Shown in pieces: positions 1 to 51,533 of a DNA stretch of 51,533 bases. The notes under the pieces are model-generated. The model saw nothing but the letters and a program-made list of their open reading frames with translations, was not told the DNA's origin and did no database searches. Positions within the stretch are counted from its first letter, which is position 1; each line of letters opens with the position of its first letter. This DNA is from a virus (Duplodnaviria > Heunggongvirae > Uroviricota > Caudoviricetes). The stretch lies in IMG/VR virus record IMGVR_UViG_2711768018_000019; one strand, 5' to 3'. Made by a program: the position numbers and the translations under genes.

Positions 1-573
1 ATGTTTTGCGAAGAAAAAGTAGCTCAAATGGCTGCATACCTACTTCTTAAGCGAGGTGGGCGCATGGCATATCTGAAATTGATGAAGCTGCTCTATCTGT
101 CTAACCGCAAGTCGATTTTGAAGCATGGCAGGATGATCGGCGAAGATAGCCTTTACTCTATGAAATTTGGTCCAGTCATGTCGAATACGCTGAACTTGAT
201 TCGTGGTAAGGCTGAAGGTATTGGTGACTACTGGTACAACCTGATAGAGACGAACGGGCATGATGTGTTGTTGCGTTCAGATCCGAGGGAAATGGATGCA
301 GACGAGGTCTTTGATGAGTTGAGCCGTGCAGATATCCGGATTTTAGATGAAATCTATTCTCTGTATGGGCATATGAACCGATTTGATCTCGCAAACATGA
401 CGCATTTAGAAAGCGTTTGTCCAGAGTGGCACAATCCTGGCAATTCTCGTAAGCCTATAGACCTGAAAGAAATGCTGATCAGTGAGGGTAAAAGCGAGGA
501 TGAGGCTAATCGTATAATTGGCAAAATGGAAGAATCTCAGAAACTTAAGGAATTTTCTTTGCAATTATCATGA
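1..573 (+). CDS. Panacea-domain (DUF4065, SocA/GepA-like) protein, putative antitoxin; may be 5'-truncated by the window edge
   Basis: 190-aa ORF with an N-terminal motif (YLKLMKLLYL ... GEDSLYSMKFGPV) that I recall as typical of DUF4065/Panacea proteins. Its stop overlaps the next ORF's start (ATGA). Confidence 0.5.
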   Translation: MFCEEKVAQMAAYLLLKRGGRMAYLKLMKLLYLSNRKSILKHGRMIGEDSLYSMKFGPVMSNTLNLIRGKAEGIGDYWYNLIETNGHDVLLRSDPREMDADEVFDELSRADIRILDEIYSLYGHMNRFDLANMTHLESVCPEWHNPGNSRKPIDLKEMLISEGKSEDEANRIIGKMEESQKLKEFSLQLS

Positions 574-989
574 CGGATTATCAGCCATACAGGAAAGGAA
601 CTGTGCTTGCCCCAACTGGGCCATGCAATCATCTTCATGTGATTTGTAATGATCCTGTTTATTACCCCGTTAACGATTGTTATTGTGTTTTAGTTGTTAA
701 TATTTCTAGTATCAAGGATGGTGTCCCCCACGATCCGTCTTGCGTCTTGAATTCTGGTGATCATCGCTTTATCAAGCATCCAAGTTATGTTGTTTACGCT
801 GAAGCTATAATTTGGCGAGTGGATAACATGGTTAGAAAGCAGCGATCGGGTGAGATTTCCGTTCATGATGATATGCCAGAAGCTACATTCAATAGAATTC
901 TGGACGGTTTTGATATATCTGATGAAGTTACGCCAAAGAACCTTAAATTTAAAAATAAATATTGCGTATCATCTATTGATGATGAGTAA
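570..989 (+). CDS. Hypothetical protein, candidate toxin partner of the Panacea protein
   Basis: 139-aa ORF, Cys/His-rich, no family recognised. Start overlaps the upstream stop by 4 nt, which suggests translational coupling. Confidence 0.4.
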   Translation: MTDYQPYRKGTVLAPTGPCNHLHVICNDPVYYPVNDCYCVLVVNISSIKDGVPHDPSCVLNSGDHRFIKHPSYVVYAEAIIWRVDNMVRKQRSGEISVHDDMPEATFNRILDGFDISDEVTPKNLKFKNKYCVSSIDDE

Positions 990-42397: not shown

Positions 42398-42407
42398 TGG
42401 GGTGAAT

Positions 42408-45400
42408 ATGGCAGTAAAGATTTCAGGTGTACTGAAAGACGGCACAGGAAAACCGGTACAGAACTGCACAATCCAGCTGAAAGCAAAACGTAACAGCACC
42501 ACGGTGGTGGTGAACACGCTGGCCTCAGAAAATCCGGATGAAGCCGGGCGTTACAGCATGGACGTTGAGTACGGGCAGTACAGCGTTATTCTGTTGGTGG
42601 AGGGATTCCCGCCGTCACATGCCGGGACCATCACCGTGTATGAAGATTCCCGACCCGGTACGCTGAATGATTTTCTCGGTGCCATGACGGAGGATGATGC
42701 CCGTCCTGAGGCACTGCGCCGCTTTGAACTGATGGTGGAAGAGGTGGCGCGTAACGCGTCCGCGGTGGCACAGAACACGGCAGCCGCGAAGAAATCAGCC
42801 AGCGATGCCAGCACATCAGCCCGTGAGGCGGCAACCCGTGCGACTGATGCTGCAGGCTCAGCACGAGCAGCCAGCACGTCAGCCGGACAGGCCGCTTCGT
42901 CGGCTCAGTCTGCGTCTTCCAGCGCAGGAACGGCATCAGCAAAGGCCACTGAAGCATCAAAAAGTGCTGCCGCTGCAGAGTCCTCAAAAAGCGCGGCGGC
43001 CACCAGTGCCGGTGCGGCGAAAACGTCAGAAACGAATGCGGCAGCGTCACAACAATCAGCTGCCACTTCTGCATCCACCGCGACCACGAAAGCGTCAGAA
43101 GCAGCCACCTCAGCCAGAGATGCGTCGGCTTCAAAAGAGGCGGCAAAATTATCAGAAACGAGCGCAGCTTCGAGCGCCAGTAATGCCGCTTCCTCGGCAA
43201 CGGCGGCAGGAAATTCCGCGAAGGCGGCAAAGACGTCTGAGACAAACGCTAAGTCCTCTGAAACGGCAGCAGCACAGAGTGCCTCCGCAGCAGCAGGCTC
43301 AAAAACAGCGGCTGCGTCGTCTGCCAGTGCAGCGTCAACAAGTGCCGGGCAGGCCTCAGCCAGTGCTAGCGCCGCCGGAAAATCGGCAGAAAGCGCCGCA
43401 TCGTCCGCTTCAACAGCCACAACGAAGGCTGGCGAAGCCACTGAACAGGCCAGTGCAGCAGCGAGGTCTGCTTCCGCAGCGAAGACATCGGAGACGAACG
43501 CGAAAGCGTCGGAGACCAGCGCAGAATCCTCAAAAACGGCTGCCGCATCGTCCGCCAGTTCGGCGGCGTCATCGGCATCATCGGCGTCTGCTTCAAAAGA
43601 TGAGGCGACCAGACAAGCGTCCGCAGCGAAGGGCAGCGCCACGACAGCATCCACGAAGGCGACAGAGGCTGCTGGCAGTGCGACGGCGGCAGCACAGAGC
43701 AAAAGTACGGCGGAATCCGCGGCAACGCGCGCCGAGACAGCGGCAAAACGTGCAGAGGATATTGCATCCGCCGTGGCGCTTGAGGATGCGAGCACGACGA
43801 AAAAGGGGATAGTACAGCTCAGTAGTGCGACTAATAGCACGTCTGAAACGCTGGCGGCAACGCCAAAGGCAGTAAAAGCAGCCAATGACAATGCTGAGAA
43901 ACGTCTGCAGAAAGACCAGAACGGCGCTGATATACCCGATAAGGGACGCTTCCTGAACAACATTAACGCGGTCAGTAAAACAGACTTTGCTGATAAGCGT
44001 GGTATGCGTTATGTGCGGGTTAACGCTCCTGCAGGTGCAACATCTGGAAAATATTACCCTGTTGTTGTTATGCGTTCTGCTGGCTCAGTAAGCGAACTGG
44101 CATCAAGGGTCATTATCACCACGGCAACGCGAATCGCAGGCGATCCGATGAATAACTGCGAGTTTAACGGATTTGTTATGCCTGGTGGCTGGACTGACAG
44201 GGGGCGTTATGCTTATGGAATGTTCTGGCAATATCAAAACAATGAACGAGCCATCCACTCAATAATGATGAGTAATAAGGGCGATGATTTGCGCTCTGTG
44301 TTCTATGTTGATGGCGCTGCTTTCCCTGTTTTTGCGTTTCTCGAAGATGGCCTGTCAATATCCGCACCTGGTGCTGATCTCGTTGTTAATGATACGACCT
44401 ATAAGTTTGGGGCAACAAATCCGGCGACTGAATGTATCGCGGCGGACGTTATCCTTGATTTTAAGAGTGGGCGTGGTTTTTATGAGTCTCATTCGTTAAT
44501 CGTTAACGATAACTTGTCGTGCAAAAAACTTTTTGCCACAGACGAAATTGTAGCGCGTGGTGGTAATCAGATTCGAATGATAGGTGGGGAGTATGGTGCA
44601 TTATGGCGTAATGATGGCGCTAAAACTTACCTGCTGCTTACCAATCAAGGTGATGTTTATGGTGGCTGGAATACATTAAGACCGTTTGTTATTGATAACG
44701 CAACCGGCGAACTGGTTATTGGAACCAAACTGTCTGCAAGTCTGAACGGTAACGCATTGACAGCAACAAAGCTGCAAACGCCAAGACTGGTTTCTGGTGT
44801 TGAGTTTGATGGTTCCAAAGATATTACTTTAACCGCCGCGCATGTGGCTGCTTTTGCCAGAAGGGCAACGGATACATATGCCGATGCGGATGGTGGCGTT
44901 CCATGGAATGCCGAATCAGGCGCTTACAATGTCACCCGCTCTGGCAACAGCTATATTCTGGTTAACTTCTATACCGGAGTCGGAAGTTGCCGGACCTTGC
45001 AGATGAAGGCGCATTACAGAAATGGTGGTCTGTTCTACCGTTCTTCAAGAGACGGTTATGGTTTTGAGGAAGACTGGGCAGAAGTTTATACCTCGAAAAA
45101 TCTTCCACCAGAAAGCTACCCAGTCGGTGCACCAATCCCGTGGCCATCAGATACCGTTCCGTCTGGTTATGCCCTGATGCAGGGACAGACTTTTGACAAA
45201 TCTGCTTACCCGAAACTTGCAGCCGTTTATCCGTCAGGTGTGATCCCTGATATGCGTGGCTGGACGATTAAGGGCAAACCTGCCAGTGGTCGGGCCGTAT
45301 TGTCTCAGGAACAGGACGGCATTAAATCGCATACCCACAGCGCCAGCGCATCCAGTACGGATTTGGGGACGAAAACCACATCGTCGTTTGATTACGGCAC

Positions 45401-45806
45401 TAAATCCACGAATAACACTGGTGCGCATACCCATAGTTTAAGTGGCAGCACGAATGCAGCTGGTAATCACAGCCATAGAGATGGCCGTCGATTTAACCCC
45501 AGTGTTTTTAAAGATACTTATCAATATGGTTATACAAGCTCAGGTCAAAATACCTGGGGTGTACAAGGCTCAGTAGGTATGTCTACGGGGTGGTTAGCGA
45601 ATACCAGTACAGATGGTAATCATAGCCACTCACTGTCCGGCACAGCAGCATCTGCAGGTGCACACGCGCATACTGTCGGTATTGGTGCTCATACGCACTC
45701 CGTTGCGATTGGTTCACATGGACATACCATCACCGTTAACGCTGCGGGTAACGCGGAAAACACCGTCAAAAACATCGCATTTAACTATATTGTGAGGCTT
45801 GCATAA
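42408..45806 (+). CDS. stf: Side tail fibre protein Stf
   Basis: About 1130 aa. [79 protein letters not shown] matches K-12 StfR-type fibres as I recall them; long Ala/Ser/Thr repeat region; C-terminal His-rich repeats (GAHTHS, GNHSHS). Confidence 0.85.
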
Positions 45807-46390
45807 TGGCATTCAGAATGAGTGAACAACCACGGACCATAAAAATTTATAATCTGCTGACCGGAACTAATGAATTTATTGGTGAAGGTGACGCATATAT
45901 TCCGCCTCATACAGGTCTGCCAGCAAACAGTACCTATATTGCACCGCCAGATATTCCGGCTGGCTTTGTGGCTGTTTTCAACAGTGATGAGGCATCGTGG
46001 CATCTCGTTGAAGACCATCGGGGTAAAACGGTTTATGACGTAGCGTCAGGGGACGCGTTATTTATTTCTGAACTCGGTCCGTTACCGGAAAATGTTACCT
46101 GGTTATCCCCGGAAGGGGAGTTTCAGAAGTGGAACGGCACAGCCTGGGTGAAGGATACGGAAGCAGAAAAACTGTTCCGGATCCGGGAGGCGGAAGAAAC
46201 AAAAAACAGCCTGATGCAGGTAGCCAGTGAGCATATAGCGCCACTTCAGGATGCTGTAGATCTGGAGATCGCAACGGAGGAAGAAAACTCGTTGCTGGAA
46301 GCCTGGAAGAAGTATCGGGTGTTGCTGAACCGTGTTGATACATCAACTGCACCTGATATTGAGTGGCCTGCGGTCCCTGTTATGGAGTAA
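45806..46390 (+). CDS. tfa: Tail fibre assembly protein Tfa
   Basis: 194 aa directly after stf; the N-terminal [58 protein letters not shown] is characteristic of the Tfa family. Confidence 0.8.
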
Positions 46391-46502
46391 TCGTTTTGTG
46401 ATATGCCGCAGCAACTTGTCATGGCAGGATACTGCGGCTGATTTGTGAATTTAAATAGTGTGTTTATTGCTTTATATATAAAGGATTTAATGGATTACAT
46501 AT

Positions 46503-47873
46503 CTATGATATCCCTGAAATGTCCTCTTCAAGCTCTTTTACTGATTTCGCAATTTTAAATTTAAATTTTCTCTCTATTTCACTATTGCTAAGTTTTTTTT
46601 CATTCTCTTTCCCTATCCACATAGAAACAATTTCTCGTTTCTGAGATATATGTAGATTGTCAAAGTTAGGTATGTATTTAAAAGTCTCCGCTCTACCCCT
46701 GCGGAGTTCATAGAAAGTTTTAATCAAAGACTTTGGTTTTATTTCTGATGAAAGGCCGAATCGGCGGATAAGATTATTGATCGTATGATTAACAGCTCGA
46801 AGTTGAGCTGTTGACGTTATTTGTGAGAAGTACGATACCCATCCCAATCGTTTACCTTCAAACACACATCCCGTAATTCTAAGATTTAGTTTCCACTGAC
46901 AATATGCAACAGCTCGTTCTTTATCGCGCTTATTTTTAGCTTGTAGTAGAGCGTGTCTATATGCAGTAAAAATTTTTGCTAAGGATGACTCAAATCTAAG
47001 AATGCTCTCATGTTTTATCAATAATTCTCGATTTTTTATGTGGTAGCCCAAAAAGTTGAAACTTTCATCCAAGCTGCCTACTTTGGATTTTGAGTTCTCT
47101 TCATTTAATGGATGTGGGTTTAAATTTAATGATTGAAGCTTATCAATGATATGAGAAGCTATTTTTGTTGCTTGATATTTTGGTGTTAAAATAAGAATGT
47201 CATCAACGTATCGCATGTACCATATGTCATGCATTTTATTGATTTCATCATCGAAATTAGATAGTGATATTTCAGCTAAAATGTTTGATATCGCTAATCC
47301 CTGAGGTACTCCTCTGGTATTATTAGGGATACCTTTGCTTCCTGTGGTTCCACTTACAGTAGGCACGATTAATGATGATGTTATTAACTGTCTAATTTCT
47401 TTTTTTCTAATTTTATTTTTTATTGCATTAATTATCAATTTATGTTCAATTGAAGGATAGAAACTTTTAAGATCTATTTTTGCATATTCAGCATATAGAC
47501 TGTTGTTTAATGCTTCTTTCAATGAGTCAATTACTGTATGTGGTAGTTTTAATCTGGACTTAGGATATATTTCCGTAAGGCATTCACAGAGAGCTCTAAG
47601 AGTAATTCTGTCCCTAGCAGTTGGTATGGAAATCTGTCTGGGTGTAGAGTTAGCGCCTTTAGATATTAATTTTTCTTTATATGCTGTAAATTTGTAATTG
47701 CCAGAATTAACCTTTTCAAAAATGAAAGTGATCTCATTTTTTATTGTCAAATCAAGTTTTGATGGGCGAATCCGATCTATGCCAATCGCTCCTGATTCTT
47801 TGATTTTTTCAGAGTATACTTTTAGAAGATTTTTTTTCGAGAATGACTTTTTAAAAATTCTGCTTGCAGTCAT
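46503..47873 (-). CDS. Reverse transcriptase (defence-associated, retron/UG/Abi-like; unclassified)
   Basis: 456 aa from the ATG at 47873..47871. RT motifs: RQISIPTARDRI (motif 1), AKIDLKSFYPSI (motif 2), RGVPQGLAISNILAEI (QG motif), YMRYVDDILIL (YxDD active site), FLGYHI (thumb). AT-rich; start overlaps the upstream gene's 3' end. Confidence 0.8.
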   Translation of the reverse strand: MTASRIFKKSFSKKNLLKVYSEKIKESGAIGIDRIRPSKLDLTIKNEITFIFEKVNSGNYKFTAYKEKLISKGANSTPRQISIPTARDRITLRALCECLTEIYPKSRLKLPHTVIDSLKEALNNSLYAEYAKIDLKSFYPSIEHKLIINAIKNKIRKKEIRQLITSSLIVPTVSGTTGSKGIPNNTRGVPQGLAISNILAEISLSNFDDEINKMHDIWYMRYVDDILILTPKYQATKIASHIIDKLQSLNLNPHPLNEENSKSKVGSLDESFNFLGYHIKNRELLIKHESILRFESSLAKIFTAYRHALLQAKNKRDKERAVAYCQWKLNLRITGCVFEGKRLGWVSYFSQITSTAQLRAVNHTINNLIRRFGLSSEIKPKSLIKTFYELRRGRAETFKYIPNFDNLHISQKREIVSMWIGKENEKKLSNSEIERKFKFKIAKSVKELEEDISGIS

Positions 47874-48402
47874 AGTCAATCCAAAGATATATTAATGGGA
47901 GTATATAAAGTGCGGCAGTAATAAATATTCGAAGTAATATCCATAAAATAACAATTATTTTTTCTTTTTGTGTGGGGATCCTCGTCTTAAGTCCAACTTG
48001 AGTTACCCTTGAAATTTTATCATCTATGTCACGGTGATTCTCAACCTCATTGAGCAAATTAAAATATTTTTCTTTCTGTTCAAGAGATAACTGTTGACTG
48101 GTGGTAATGTCAAAATAGAGTCGCTGTAGTGCAATATAATTCCTTCTCATGGCTATTGCTCGACCACGAAAATCTAGGTTAGATACGATCAGAGAAATAC
48201 CCAGTAGAGCCACTGAAAGTATCGCCGCAACGACATCTGTATTATCTCCTAGAACCTTTGGAAATCGCAACGTTACAATTGAAAGTACCGCACTCAATAT
48301 AGCATACCAAACGAGGATAAATTGAGAGTGTTTTTCAAGCCATTCTAGTCGATGGTGCGCTTGGATACGTGCTTTATATGTAAACCAAATATTGTCATGC
48401 AT
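47851..48402 (-). CDS. Small multi-TM membrane protein (SLATT-like candidate effector) co-transcribed with the RT
   Basis: 183 aa, RBS aagga. Two adjacent TM helices (FILVWYAILSAVLSIVTL; VVAAILSVALLGISLIVS) and a third at the C-terminus (IIVILWILLRIFITAALYILPLIYLW). Its 3' end overlaps the RT start by about 23 nt. Confidence 0.6.
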   Translation of the reverse strand: MHDNIWFTYKARIQAHHRLEWLEKHSQFILVWYAILSAVLSIVTLRFPKVLGDNTDVVAAILSVALLGISLIVSNLDFRGRAIAMRRNYIALQRLYFDITTSQQLSLEQKEKYFNLLNEVENHRDIDDKISRVTQVGLKTRIPTQKEKIIVILWILLRIFITAALYILPLIYLWIDYDCKQNF

Positions 48403-48624
48403 AAAAGATCCTTTTTAAAAGCGGAAGGGGCAGGATATATTGGAACCGTTGAACATCCTGCCCGGCAGGATCAGTGAGCATAAGCTCAACAGTAAAATAT
48501 TACTGTTCATTATCAGAGCCGCCCTTGCATGCGCAAGAGGAAAAACCTGCCCCATCCCTTTGAATTATTACAATTTAATGATCTTAAAGTCAATACAAGT
48601 GAATGGTGTCCAGAGATGATGAAC
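48403..48624 (-). ncRNA. Candidate structured ncRNA (retron msr/msd-like or DRT-type) upstream of the membrane-protein/RT operon
   Basis: On the minus strand: promoter-like -35 TTGACT (48593..48588) and -10 TAATAA (48570..48565), then inverted repeats GGATGGGGCAGG (48557..48546) and CCTGCCCCTTCC (48434..48423), 11/12 complementary, enclosing three hairpins. No ORF. Confidence 0.35.
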
Positions 48625-48873
48625 TTAATGAACAAACCACTCGTCAGCAGACTCCCAGGTATCTTTCAGAGTCTCCTGAACAAAAGTTTTAGCTGAATCT
48701 TTATCAGCGGTGCGCGTAACAGAAAGGCCATCGTTGCTGGTGGCTTTTACGATCACTTCTACATCGTCATAACGTTTACTGATGCGTCGGGTTAATTCTT
48801 CCTTTAACGCATCCACAGCACCGGTTGGCATTTTAGTCATTTTTTCTTTGGCTATGCAGATTTCAATACGCAT
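48625..48873 (-). CDS. dinI: DinI-family damage-inducible protein
   Basis: 82 aa; [11 protein letters not shown] ... [16 protein letters not shown] matches the DinI family. Preceded by two LexA boxes. Confidence 0.75.
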
Positions 48874-48887
48874 AAAAGTCCCCTACA

Positions 48888-48931
48888 CTGTATTTGTATA
48901 CAGTATTATTTTTAACTGTATGGATAAACAG
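48888..48931. promoter_or_regulatory. Two LexA (SOS) boxes in the dinI promoter
   Basis: CTGTatttgtatACAG (48888-48903) and CTGTatggataaACAG (48916-48931), both matching CTGT-N8-ACAG, between the integrase stop and the dinI start. Confidence 0.7.
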
Positions 48932-48933
48932 TG

Positions 48934-50031
48934 TCAAGAGGTCTTATTTCTGCTCCTTTGGAGTTCTTCAAAACGATTATGTAAAGATTTCGGATACAGT
49001 TCGGTATATACCTGCCATAGCACGTTTAATGAACGATGCCCTGTAACCTGAGCGACTTCCTCAATACTAAAACCAGCCTCAAATAAGCGACTTGCCCCTT
49101 CTCTACGCAAATCATGGTATCTCAGATCTTTAATACCTAATTTGCTTCTTACCCTCTGAAATCCTGCGGTAACAGAAGTGCTGTTATATGGAAAAATGAA
49201 TTCTGATTTTTTGGGTTGTCGCTGGACGATATCCCAGGCTTCCCCAAGCAAGGCAACTTTCATATGGTTGCCTTCCTTTTTACGTGGATCTTTCCTGTCT
49301 CTTACTAGTATAGATTTTTGTTCCTGGTCGAGATCTTCCCATCGTAACCGGCATACTTCTCCGATTCGCATACAGGACCACACAGAAAATTTGAGGATAT
49401 CAACGAACGGAATTTTTGAGCATTTATGAGTAGATCGTTGTTGAAGGCCTTCAATGAGCATGTTCAGTTCATCAGATGCTGGTCTACGATTACGACGGTT
49501 TGATTTACCAATCAAACCGAGTTTAAGTAGATATGGACGAGCGCTTTTCGCCGGGTTTGATGTGTAATTGATTCCGTATACAGGTTTTGCCGCATCCAGA
49601 ACACTGCCAAGATAACTAACATCGTGGCTGACTGTTGCTGGGCCTGCACCAGCGTTGTTTCTTAGCCTGCAATGTTCAATTACGTCATTTTCTGTCAGTT
49701 CAGATAGTTTGATCGCGGAGATGTCACTATCCATAAGCAGTTCCAGCACATATCTTTTAGTACGGCCTGCTTTACCTCCGGCATTTGGGTCATTTAAATA
49801 TTTGTGTAGTAAGTCACGGACTGTAAGTCCGTCAACAGCATTTGATGATGGAATGCCATATAGATCTAATTCCATCACTTTCTGTGCGCCCCATGTTTTG
49901 GCATGAGCATGTTTAGGGAATGTTTTGCTTTCCCTGTAAGTGATAACACCTTTTTCTTTGATAATCACATTACAGCGATAGCGTGGTGTGCCATCGGATT
50001 TTAGTCGTTTCTCTATGTTATAGTACGCCAT
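48934..50031 (-). CDS. int: Tyrosine integrase (DusA-associated family)
   Basis: 365 aa with C-terminal catalytic-domain motifs (HDLRREGASRL, VTGHRSLNVLWQVY); lies immediately beside and divergent from dusA. Confidence 0.85.
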   Translation of the reverse strand: MAYYNIEKRLKSDGTPRYRCNVIIKEKGVITYRESKTFPKHAHAKTWGAQKVMELDLYGIPSSNAVDGLTVRDLLHKYLNDPNAGGKAGRTKRYVLELLMDSDISAIKLSELTENDVIEHCRLRNNAGAGPATVSHDVSYLGSVLDAAKPVYGINYTSNPAKSARPYLLKLGLIGKSNRRNRRPASDELNMLIEGLQQRSTHKCSKIPFVDILKFSVWSCMRIGEVCRLRWEDLDQEQKSILVRDRKDPRKKEGNHMKVALLGEAWDIVQRQPKKSEFIFPYNSTSVTAGFQRVRSKLGIKDLRYHDLRREGASRLFEAGFSIEEVAQVTGHRSLNVLWQVYTELYPKSLHNRFEELQRSRNKTS

Positions 50032-50119
50032 TACACGACCTCGTTATTTCGGGTTCCCATAAAGCGTGGGAACCTGTGCGGGAACCTAACGCGAGAAAAA
50101 TAGCCTGAAATGTTCAAAA

Positions 50120-51157
50120 ATGCACGATAATCCTGAAACACAGAAAACTAATCAAACCAGCGTGATGCCTGAAAAAACTGGCGCTTACTGGAGTTCTCGG
50201 TTTAGCATTGCTCCTATGCTCGACTGGACGGACAGACATTGCCGCTATTTCTTGCGTCTGCTTTCCCGCAATACGTTGCTGTATACCGAAATGGTGACCA
50301 CAGGGGCGATTATTCACGGTAAAGGTGATTACCTGGCGTACAGTGAAGAAGAACATCCGGTAGCGTTGCAACTCGGCGGTAGCGATCCGGCGGCGCTGGC
50401 ACAGTGTGCGAAGCTGGCAGAAGCGCGTGGATATGATGAGATCAACCTGAATGTCGGCTGCCCGTCTGACCGGGTGCAGAACGGCATGTTTGGTGCGTGT
50501 CTGATGGGTAATGCGCAGCTGGTTGCCGACTGCGTGAAAGCGATGCGCGATGTGGTGTCGATTCCAGTGACGGTGAAAACGCGTATTGGCATCGATGACC
50601 AGGACAGCTATGAATTTCTCTGCGATTTCATCAACACCGTTTCCGGCAAAGGCGAGTGTGAGATGTTTATCATCCACGCACGTAAAGCCTGGCTTTCGGG
50701 GTTAAGCCCGAAAGAAAACCGTGAAATCCCGCCACTCGATTATCCGCGTGTGTATCAACTGAAGCGTGACTTTCCGCATCTGACAATGTCGATTAACGGT
50801 GGTATCAAGTCGCTGGAAGAGGCCAAAGCACACCTGCAACATATGGATGGCGTGATGGTCGGGCGCGAGGCGTATCAGAATCCGGGTATTCTGGCGGCGG
50901 TAGACCGGGAGATCTTTGGTTCCTCGGATACCGATGCCGATCCGGTGGCGGTAGTGCGCGCCATGTATCCGTACATTGAGCGTGAACTCAGCCAGGGGAC
51001 GTATCTCGGCCATATTACCCGGCATATGTTGGGCTTGTTCCAGGGTATTCCTGGCGCGCGGCAGTGGCGGCGTTATTTAAGTGAAAATGCCCATAAAGCG
51101 GGTGCAGACATTAATGTGCTGGAACACGCGCTCAAACTGGTGGCGGATAAGCGTTAA
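50120..51157 (+). CDS. dusA: tRNA-dihydrouridine synthase A
   Basis: 345 aa; TIM-barrel Dus family ([22 protein letters not shown] ... NLNVGCPS ... catalytic Cys region). The first ~25 codons are probably prophage-derived. Confidence 0.9.
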
Positions 51158-51239
51158 CTTTTCACCAAAAAGTAGTCAAATTCACCACGCCCTGCGCACC
51201 GTCGCGGGGCGTTTTGCTGTTAAATCAATAGATTATTTT

Positions 51240-51255
51240 TGGCATGATTCTTGTA
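51240..51255 (+). promoter_or_regulatory. Candidate sigma-54 promoter for pspG
   Basis: TGGCATgattcTTGTA resembles the -24/-12 consensus TGGCAC-N5-TTGCA, about 36 nt upstream of the pspG ATG. Confidence 0.35.
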
Positions 51256-51290
51256 ATGCCAGCAAGAGATTTCATATTTGGGAGAGCATC

Positions 51291-51533
51291 ATGCTGGAAC
51301 TACTTTTTGTGATTGGCTTTTTTGTCATGCTGATGGTCACCGGCGTTTCGTTGCTGGGCATTATCGCCGCGCTGGTTGTGGCGACGGCCATTATGTTCCT
51401 CGGCGGTATGCTGGCATTGATGATTAAGTTGCTGCCGTGGTTACTACTGGCGATTGCGGTGGTGTGGGTTATTAAGGCGATTAAAGCACCAAAAGTGCCG
51501 AAATATCAGCGTTATGACCGCTGGCGTTACTAA
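51291..51533 (+). CDS. pspG: Phage shock protein G
   Basis: 80-aa hydrophobic protein MLELLFVIGFFVMLMVTGVSLLGI ... KVPKYQRYDRWRY matching PspG, in its expected position after dusA. RBS gggag. Confidence 0.85.
   Translation: MLELLFVIGFFVMLMVTGVSLLGIIAALVVATAIMFLGGMLALMIKLLPWLLLAIAVVWVIKAIKAPKVPKYQRYDRWRY

Follow-up and report, generated by a model that had tools for sequence, protein, structure and literature searches.

The window analysed here is a 51,533-nucleotide (nt) stretch of DNA from a virus of the Caudoviricetes (IMG/VR record IMGVR_UViG_2711768018_000019), and close to one of its ends it carries, on the minus strand, a cassette made up of a small noncoding RNA (ncRNA), a SLATT_5 membrane protein and a reverse transcriptase (RT). 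Very probably this three-part locus is an anti-phage system of type DRT10 (UG17), naturally allelic to Eco3DRT10, the system of E. coli 703491 (RT accession OKX54664). DRT10 is already known, and the window contains no new kind of system. An earlier note, written from the letters of this DNA, had proposed a defence operon of a SLATT-like protein and a UG/DRT-type RT behind an ncRNA-like region, and this proposal is borne out by the finding of RT_UG17, SLATT_5, RTasSLATT and the DRT10 ncRNA. The same note had supposed that the gene order and the 456-amino-acid (aa) RT fit no named type and might represent an undescribed variant; that part has to be given up, as ncRNA-SLATT-RT with overlapping genes is how UG17 loci are predominantly arranged (Sanchez-Nieto et al., 2026; 10.64898/2026.04.29.721553) and the system is DRT10.

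UG17 had been named before 2022, and work from that year reported its tight SLATT association, its enrichment in defence islands and that UG17 RTs render sbcB essential in some E. coli. PADLOC already had hidden Markov models (HMMs) for both proteins, RT_UG17 and RTasSLATT, in 2023. Two preprints followed: Tang et al. (2025; PMC12632851) described the tripartite ncRNA-SLATT-RT composition, the protein-primed production of complementary DNA (cDNA) in tandem repeats and the A-B-A′ rule for the template, and Sanchez-Nieto et al. defined subtypes, control by exonuclease I (ExoI, SbcB) and a phage SSB-like trigger. Defence was shown to need the RT active site, SLATT and the ncRNA in Eco1-3DRT10 (PMC12632851) and in the system of Escherichia sp. 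E3659 (10.64898/2026.04.29.721553). DRT10 is of current interest for its telomerase-like repeat addition and for the link from the DNA to the SLATT effector.

Reverse transcriptase and SLATT genes

The protein-coding part of the cassette consists of two mutually overlapping minus-strand open reading frames (ORFs), at 47851..48402 (183 aa) and, as given in the ORF list, at 46503..47879 (458 aa, TTG start). The GC content is 0.31-0.34 over about 46400-48200, about 0.47-0.50 in tfa and 0.40-0.43 in dinI/int (window GC profile), and Pfam recognises Caudo_TAP in tfa, DinI and Phage_integrase among the neighbours; ORFs, composition and Pfam thus agree with the earlier description of two such genes in an AT-rich island between tfa and dinI/int. 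The most likely real start of the RT is the ATG at 47873 rather than the TTG at 47879, because RefSeq uses it at identical loci and homologues begin there. This places the 456-aa RT at 46503..47873 and leaves a 23-nt overlap with the SLATT gene; the same 2-aa start misannotation was noted for the Eco3DRT10 RT by Tang et al. (PMC12632851).

The RT motifs read earlier from the translation are present, with QG at residue 191, RYVDD at 221-225 (catalytic YVDD 222-225) and FLGY at 274. The PADLOC model RT_UG17 matched the protein along the whole model (positions 1-429 of 429; 526.6 bits, E 1.1e-158), about 400 bits ahead of the second-best PADLOC model, Drt3a (130 bits, E 3e-38), and the RT fell below every curated cut-off of the NCBIfam models for group II intron RTs, retrons, Drt2, Drt3a and Drt4. 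A search of PDB sequences with the RT returned no DRT10 structure, the nearest being group II intron RTs (E 4e-14) and Drt3a/Drt2, with overall E-values of 1e-14 to 1e-6. Judged by the PADLOC scores, the RT falls within UG17 among the class-2 UG/Abi RTs. Its C-terminus reads ...ELEEDISGIS, so that Ser456 is the last residue, and the terminal Ser and the ELEEDI motif are kept in all 17 homologues; YVDD is conserved as well. Ser456 is a candidate priming residue by analogy with Eco3DRT10, in which S456 is needed for priming; in Eco1DRT10 the priming residue is Y444 (Tang et al., PMC12632851).

The 183-aa product of 47851..48402, the putative membrane effector, has three hydrophobic segments by Kyte-Doolittle, at about residues 28-47, 57-76 and 149-173, matching the three transmembrane-like segments seen earlier. 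It was matched by PADLOC RTasSLATT (E 1.5e-56), by Pfam SLATT_5 (E 1.3e-28, 100.1 bits, cut-off 29.5) and by NCBIfam SLATT_5 (E 8.5e-40, 136 bits, cut-off 60). The HMM E-values of 1e-158 for the RT and 1.5e-56 for SLATT exclude a chance match. Profile searches against RT classes and SLATT families, which the earlier note had named as the way to check its proposal, came out in its favour, with 526 bits for full-length UG17, 100 and 136 bits for SLATT_5, and 144 bits against a cut-off of 300 for the group II intron model.

We compared the cassette with that of E. coli CE10, whose RT is identical to the Eco3DRT10 RT OKX54664 at each of the 397 aa that Tang Table S1 prints. Between the window and CE10, 445 of 456 RT residues are identical (11 differences) and 179 of 183 SLATT residues (4 differences), and the window RT is identical or near-identical to RTs given as UG17 loci in Tang Table S1. 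From the RT identity of about 97.6% we infer that the window cassette would defend against phage.

The small RNA, its promoter and its template

The third component lies between dinI and the SLATT gene, in a 222-nt intergenic region that is 98.2% identical to that of CE10, and we place the DRT10 ncRNA, of about 137 nt, at 48557..48421 on the minus strand on the strength of its fold, its covariation and the CE10 identity. Its ends come from two sources: the promoter gives a start at about 48557, and the 137-nt length and numbering of Tang et al. give an end at 48421, which falls just past the closing stem, before a UUUU, and 18 nt upstream of the SLATT ATG. In the CE10 RNA, positions 110, 116, 117 and 119 are U, C, A and U, in agreement with the mutants U110A, C116G, A117U and U119A of Tang et al. 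The 18-nt stretch between the putative ncRNA 3′ end and the SLATT start codon (48403-48420, minus strand) contains the UUUU run and an AAAGGA ribosome-binding site, and the ncRNA end and the initiation of SLATT translation would therefore be physically coupled.

A promoter-like site at 48564..48593 (minus strand; TTGACT, an 18-nt spacer with TG, AATAAT) has a −10 box that ends 7 nt ahead of the proposed ncRNA 5′ end. Scoring 10/12, it stands joint top with two others in a scan of 46300-49000 and is the sole site there with an extended −10 TG; it is unchanged across five E. coli loci, and a −10-like box is found at equal distance in Xenorhabdus and Pseudomonas loci. These features suggest that the site promotes the ncRNA. 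The SLATT-RT mRNA probably arises by read-through from the same promoter, because every other minus-strand site of this kind that the scan picked up around the SLATT start is within dinI or further upstream.

A scan of species-representative genomes yielded 14 full-length RT homologues (57-83% identity) in Xenorhabdus, Photorhabdus, Buttiauxella, Pseudomonas and Stutzerimonas, and the motif GGYGGYTCTRAYAA occurs exactly once in each of the 14 loci, upstream of SLATT. In an ncRNA alignment of 17 sequences from six genera, the consensus comprises 35 pairs in 5 helices, namely the closing stem P1 (nt 1-12/124-135) and stem-loops at nt 19-36, 51-70, 71-82 and 87-103. The consensus positions are paired in 98.5% of cases, a figure that falls to 48-55% if the partners are shifted by 1-3 columns, and compensatory changes occur in 15 pairs, against 3-5 after such a shift; none of 500 shuffles reached the observed values. 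Covariation supports all five helices. The window ncRNA has a minimum free energy (MFE) of −57.2 kcal/mol (z −4.58). A pairing of nt 38-44 with nt 110-116, inside the template, appears in the MFE fold and was dropped, as the comparative consensus lacks those pairs.

We found the cassette intact, from dinI through the intergenic region and SLATT to the RT, in 188 of the 5426 complete E. coli genomes, and RefSeq leaves the ncRNA unannotated in all 188, naming the genes only "reverse transcriptase domain-containing" and "SLATT domain-containing". Rfam 15, searched over 45500-51533 at E <= 1, has no family for the ncRNA and returned only IS009 in tfa and two chance microRNA matches. The practical value of the present analysis accordingly lies in annotation, in the coordinates that it gives for an unannotated ncRNA, its promoter and its template.

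Between the stem-loop at nt 87-103 (SL5) and the closing stem, directly 3′ of SL5, lies a 20-nt template loop (nt 104-123) that reads GUUCAACGGUUCCAAUAUAU. Within it, an A-B-A′ template can be laid out at 48439..48451 (minus strand), with A = CAAC (nt 107-110), B = GGUUC (nt 111-115) and A′ = CAAU (nt 116-119); the window template is thus CAACGGUUC, followed by CAAU. The register is that of Eco3DRT10 and CE10, in which the three segments are CAAU, GAUUC and CAAU, and two substitutions separate the alleles, U110C in A and A112G in B. Tang et al. (PMC12632851) gave the Eco3DRT10 template as CAAUGAUUC, which CE10 also carries, and sequenced its product as (GAATCATTG)n. For the window allele, the same rule predicts a 9-nt cDNA repeat of 5′-GAACCGTTG-3′, that is, (GAACCGTTG)n and not (GAATCATTG)n. 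Across all 17 homologues CAA is invariant in A and A′, while B is variable and 5-7 nt long, with predicted periods of 9 or 10 nt.

By exact match, 154 of the 188 E. coli genomes carry the window template allele and 34 the Eco3 allele, which together account for all of them, and the window allele is also found in Xenorhabdus. Experiments have thus used the rarer of the two E. coli template alleles; this is a small new point, and it offers a natural test of whether the repeat sequence matters. If defence were equal with either repeat, nature would confirm that control of SLATT ignores the repeat sequence; if it differed, the sequence would matter for effector activation or for evading phage counter-measures.

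The steps of the mechanism have been shown for near-identical or related systems, and we infer that they carry over to the window. The ncRNA would be transcribed from its own promoter and bound by the RT, which would prime DNA synthesis from the hydroxyl of its C-terminal Ser456 and copy the template from C115 to C107 (A-B), just 3′ of SL5. At the 5′ template boundary the 3′ end of the nascent DNA would unpair and re-anneal on the downstream copy A′, and repeated cycles would yield long single-stranded tandem-repeat DNA covalently joined to the RT, much as telomerase adds repeats. Protein-linked single-stranded DNA (ssDNA) of tandem repeats has been shown in Eco3DRT10 and eight other homologues (PMC12632851), and RT-dependent tandem-repeat cDNA in E3659 (10.64898/2026.04.29.721553). 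Host ExoI would limit the repeat DNA, and a phage SSB-like protein would perturb this control during infection; in the E3659 system, losing sbcB causes toxicity, and activation needs a phage SSB-like protein (10.64898/2026.04.29.721553). SLATT would then act as a membrane effector and abort the infection, in keeping with its being required for defence and presumed to form a membrane pore (Tang et al., PMC12632851).

Known systems and alternative readings

Eco3DRT10 is the closest known counterpart. It shares with the window the promoter, the 137-nt ncRNA, SLATT_5 and an overlapping 456-aa UG17 RT that ends in Ser456, as well as the A-B-A′ register, the 9-nt period and the neighbourhood of dinI and a tyrosine recombinase. 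The UG17-A model system of Escherichia sp. E3659 resembles the window in its ncRNA-SLATT-RT order, its overlapping genes and its host in the Pseudomonadota, and its own features include tandem-repeat cDNA, a template flanked by a short repeat and dependence on SbcB; however, its ncRNA is 143 nt long with six stem-loops and a 7-nt AGTAATA repeat, and the published probe is, by eye, unlike the window ncRNA. DRT9 (UG28) also combines a class-2 UG RT with a similarly shaped upstream ncRNA, protein-primed long repetitive ssDNA and an occasional SLATT association, but it uses a poly-U template, a poly-dA product and Tyr priming, whereas the window has no U-run in its template and a terminal Ser. The comparison with telomerase (telomerase RT and telomerase RNA) was drawn by Tang et al. 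from the repeats made on a short internal RNA template, the realignment segment and the 5′ boundary helix. The window RT differs from telomerase in its size of 456 aa, its predicted protein priming, the lack of a chromosome-end substrate and its defence role, and the relationship rests on the phylogeny of Tang et al.

Several points weigh against the assignment of the window locus to an active Eco3-type DRT10. For this allele the assignment rests on sequence and the activity is a prediction, and the identity of the ncRNA depends on CE10 as a proxy for Eco3DRT10. On the RT strand, no U-run follows the hairpin at the 3′ edge of the cassette in the window, so that the end of the operon transcript is uncertain there. 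The two template substitutions, by which the window departs from Eco3DRT10, leave A and A′ with matches at three of four bases, and the dG copied opposite C110 would wobble-pair with U119 on realignment, giving 3 Watson-Crick pairs and 1 wobble. A112G moreover creates a competing GUUC-AACG-GUUC pattern with a possible secondary 8-nt register. This register would need copying up to the base adjoining SL5 and is less likely given the boundary role of SL5. Our judgement is evenly divided on the fuller claim that the Eco3-type template is naturally polymorphic, with a majority allele that programmes GAACCGTTG and might also give a mixed or 8-nt (CGTTGAAC) product. Finally, the two papers conflict on the fate of the cDNA: Tang et al. 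(PMC12632851) report that it falls on infection and propose that it neutralises SLATT, whereas Sanchez-Nieto et al. (10.64898/2026.04.29.721553) report that it rises and propose that it activates SLATT, and both leave open how the DNA controls SLATT.

Some of these points would also fit a relative of DRT10 without activity in this strain, whether a decaying remnant or a silenced copy, with an altered template or lost expression: two template bases differ from the tested one, one of them in A, and the terminator tail is lost. We think this improbable. Neither ORF is broken, YVDD and the terminal Ser are in place, the promoter and all helices are intact, and the presence of the template allele in the majority of the genomes and in Xenorhabdus argues for a functional variant. 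Tang et al. (PMC12632851) further found that three bases of A-A′ homology are generally enough, that B is freely variable, and that the fourth base of A can be changed (U110A was tolerated), with the product then following A.

A functional DRT10 is also to be preferred to a different class-2 UG system, be it DRT3-like (poly-dTdG), DRT9-like (poly-dA) or DRT2-like (rolling-circle gene synthesis). The HMMs for Drt3a, Drt2 and Drt9 do give significant matches (E 3e-38 to 7e-20), and the DRT10 and DRT9 ncRNAs resemble each other according to Tang et al. (PMC12632851), but the lead of the UG17 model, scores under the NCBIfam cut-offs for Drt3a and Drt2, a single RT gene in place of a UG3+UG8 pair, and a template loop that has the A-B-A′ pattern and neither a U-run nor an ACACAC tract make such a system very improbable.

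We give almost no credence to a retron, in which the RT would produce msDNA on an msr/msd RNA and the membrane protein would serve as effector. A retron is alike in outline, as an RT with a small ncRNA and an effector in a prophage hotspot, and the retron_St85_RT model matches weakly (E 6.8e-16); this match, however, reaches 58 bits against a cut-off of 235 and against 526 bits for RT_UG17, the ncRNA, closed and multi-stemmed, has a single-stranded template loop but neither a1/a2 repeats nor a long msd hairpin, and the Rfam search over 45500-51533 (E <= 1) found no retron msr family. Equally negligible is the reading of the RT as a group II intron RT/maturase, or as some other retroelement RT outside defence, beside an unrelated membrane gene, since, although the best NCBIfam match is group_II_RT_mat (E 4.5e-42) and the closest solved structures are of that type, TIGR04416 scores only 144 bits against its cut-off and the GIIM maturase domain 14.8 against 23, Rfam found no intron RNA domains, and the RT overlaps a SLATT gene in a pairing that is kept, together with the upstream ncRNA, in Xenorhabdus, Photorhabdus, Buttiauxella, Pseudomonas and Stutzerimonas.

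Cassette edges, distribution and prophage neighbourhood

At the 3′ edge of the DRT10 cassette lies a hairpin (46405..46438, minus strand) built on the inverted repeat GCCGCAG/CTGCGGC (46405-46411 / 46432-46438), which extends into a stable structure on the RT strand (−17.5 kcal/mol, z −4.26). In AR434, CE10 and HCM-28C-2, the stem is followed on the RT strand by TTTTTAT, giving a canonical terminator; in the window and in MS6192 it is followed by ATATCAC, contributed by the tfa module. Where E. coli cassettes have different tail-fibre neighbours, homology stops exactly after the hairpin stem, and this break suggests module exchange at the terminator. The hairpin is thus the cassette's own terminator stem and a recombination boundary, with an uncertain terminator function in the window. 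The earlier note had suggested that it may act as a convergent terminator shared with tfa, which is only half borne out: the inverted repeat and the hairpin are real, but the hairpin belongs to the RT cassette, and in the window the tfa module has taken the place of the TTTTTAT found after it on the RT strand in other loci. Loci with another tail-fibre accessory gene retain TTTTTAT, and it is gone from loci that have a lambda-type tfa.

In a genome whose cassette is 100% identical, a lambdoid prophage of ~43 kb is annotated between zur and dusA. In the window, the cassette is flanked by a lambda-type tail fibre gene (tfa) and by dinI and a tyrosine-type integrase, with dusA beyond the integrase; it is carried as cargo by a lambdoid prophage integrated at dusA, at the end nearest the integrase. 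The same dinI-ncRNA-SLATT-RT block adjoins prfC, without an integrase beside it, in E. coli MS6192, CE10, 01G17CRGN001 and HCM-28C-2, and there it sits at a prophage end, at an integration site other than dusA. Its occurrence at two prophage sites (dusA and prfC) therefore marks the block as a cargo module exchanged between lambdoid prophages. By megablast, none of 50,697 GenBank phage records matched the cassette at 85% identity or more, and it was seen only in prophages of genomes.

Among the prfC-linked loci, dinI is frameshifted in two, and in HCM-28C-2 the block is separated from prfC by a second dinI and a DUF4760 gene. Inactivation of the cassette by insertion sequences in some genomes was considered and rejected, the insertions being either next to dinI on the upstream side of the ncRNA promoter or located between dinI and int, with all parts of the system intact. 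In MS20649, IS2 directly adjoins the stop codon of dinI and lies upstream of the ncRNA promoter, and in 02A16CRGN003, ISKox3 lies between dinI and int; the DRT10 parts are intact in both.

Other features of the prophage were noted alongside the DRT10 locus. The Rfam match to IS009 (46149-46347, plus strand; 224.6 bits, gathering score 117) falls entirely within the tfa coding sequence (45806-46390), in its 3′ part, and is a candidate small-RNA family that overlaps a gene for assembly of the phage tail fibre. At the other end of the prophage, on the zur side in the matching genome, 1-573 (plus strand) encodes a Panacea/SocA-like antitoxin-domain protein (Pfam E 1.8e-18), and an ORF at 570-989 (plus strand, 139 aa), which has no Pfam or PADLOC match, overlaps it by 4 nt; the two may form a PanA-type toxin-antitoxin pair and constitute another accessory module, the second, of this prophage. 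The tail-fibre protein encoded at 42402-45806 (plus strand, 1134 aa) contains a very long Ala/Ser/Thr-rich low-complexity stretch (about aa 120-480), encoded in a segment with a GC content of 0.60-0.63. This low-complexity region is length-variable between strains, because the gene of the matching genome is 381 nt shorter (3024 vs 3405 nt).

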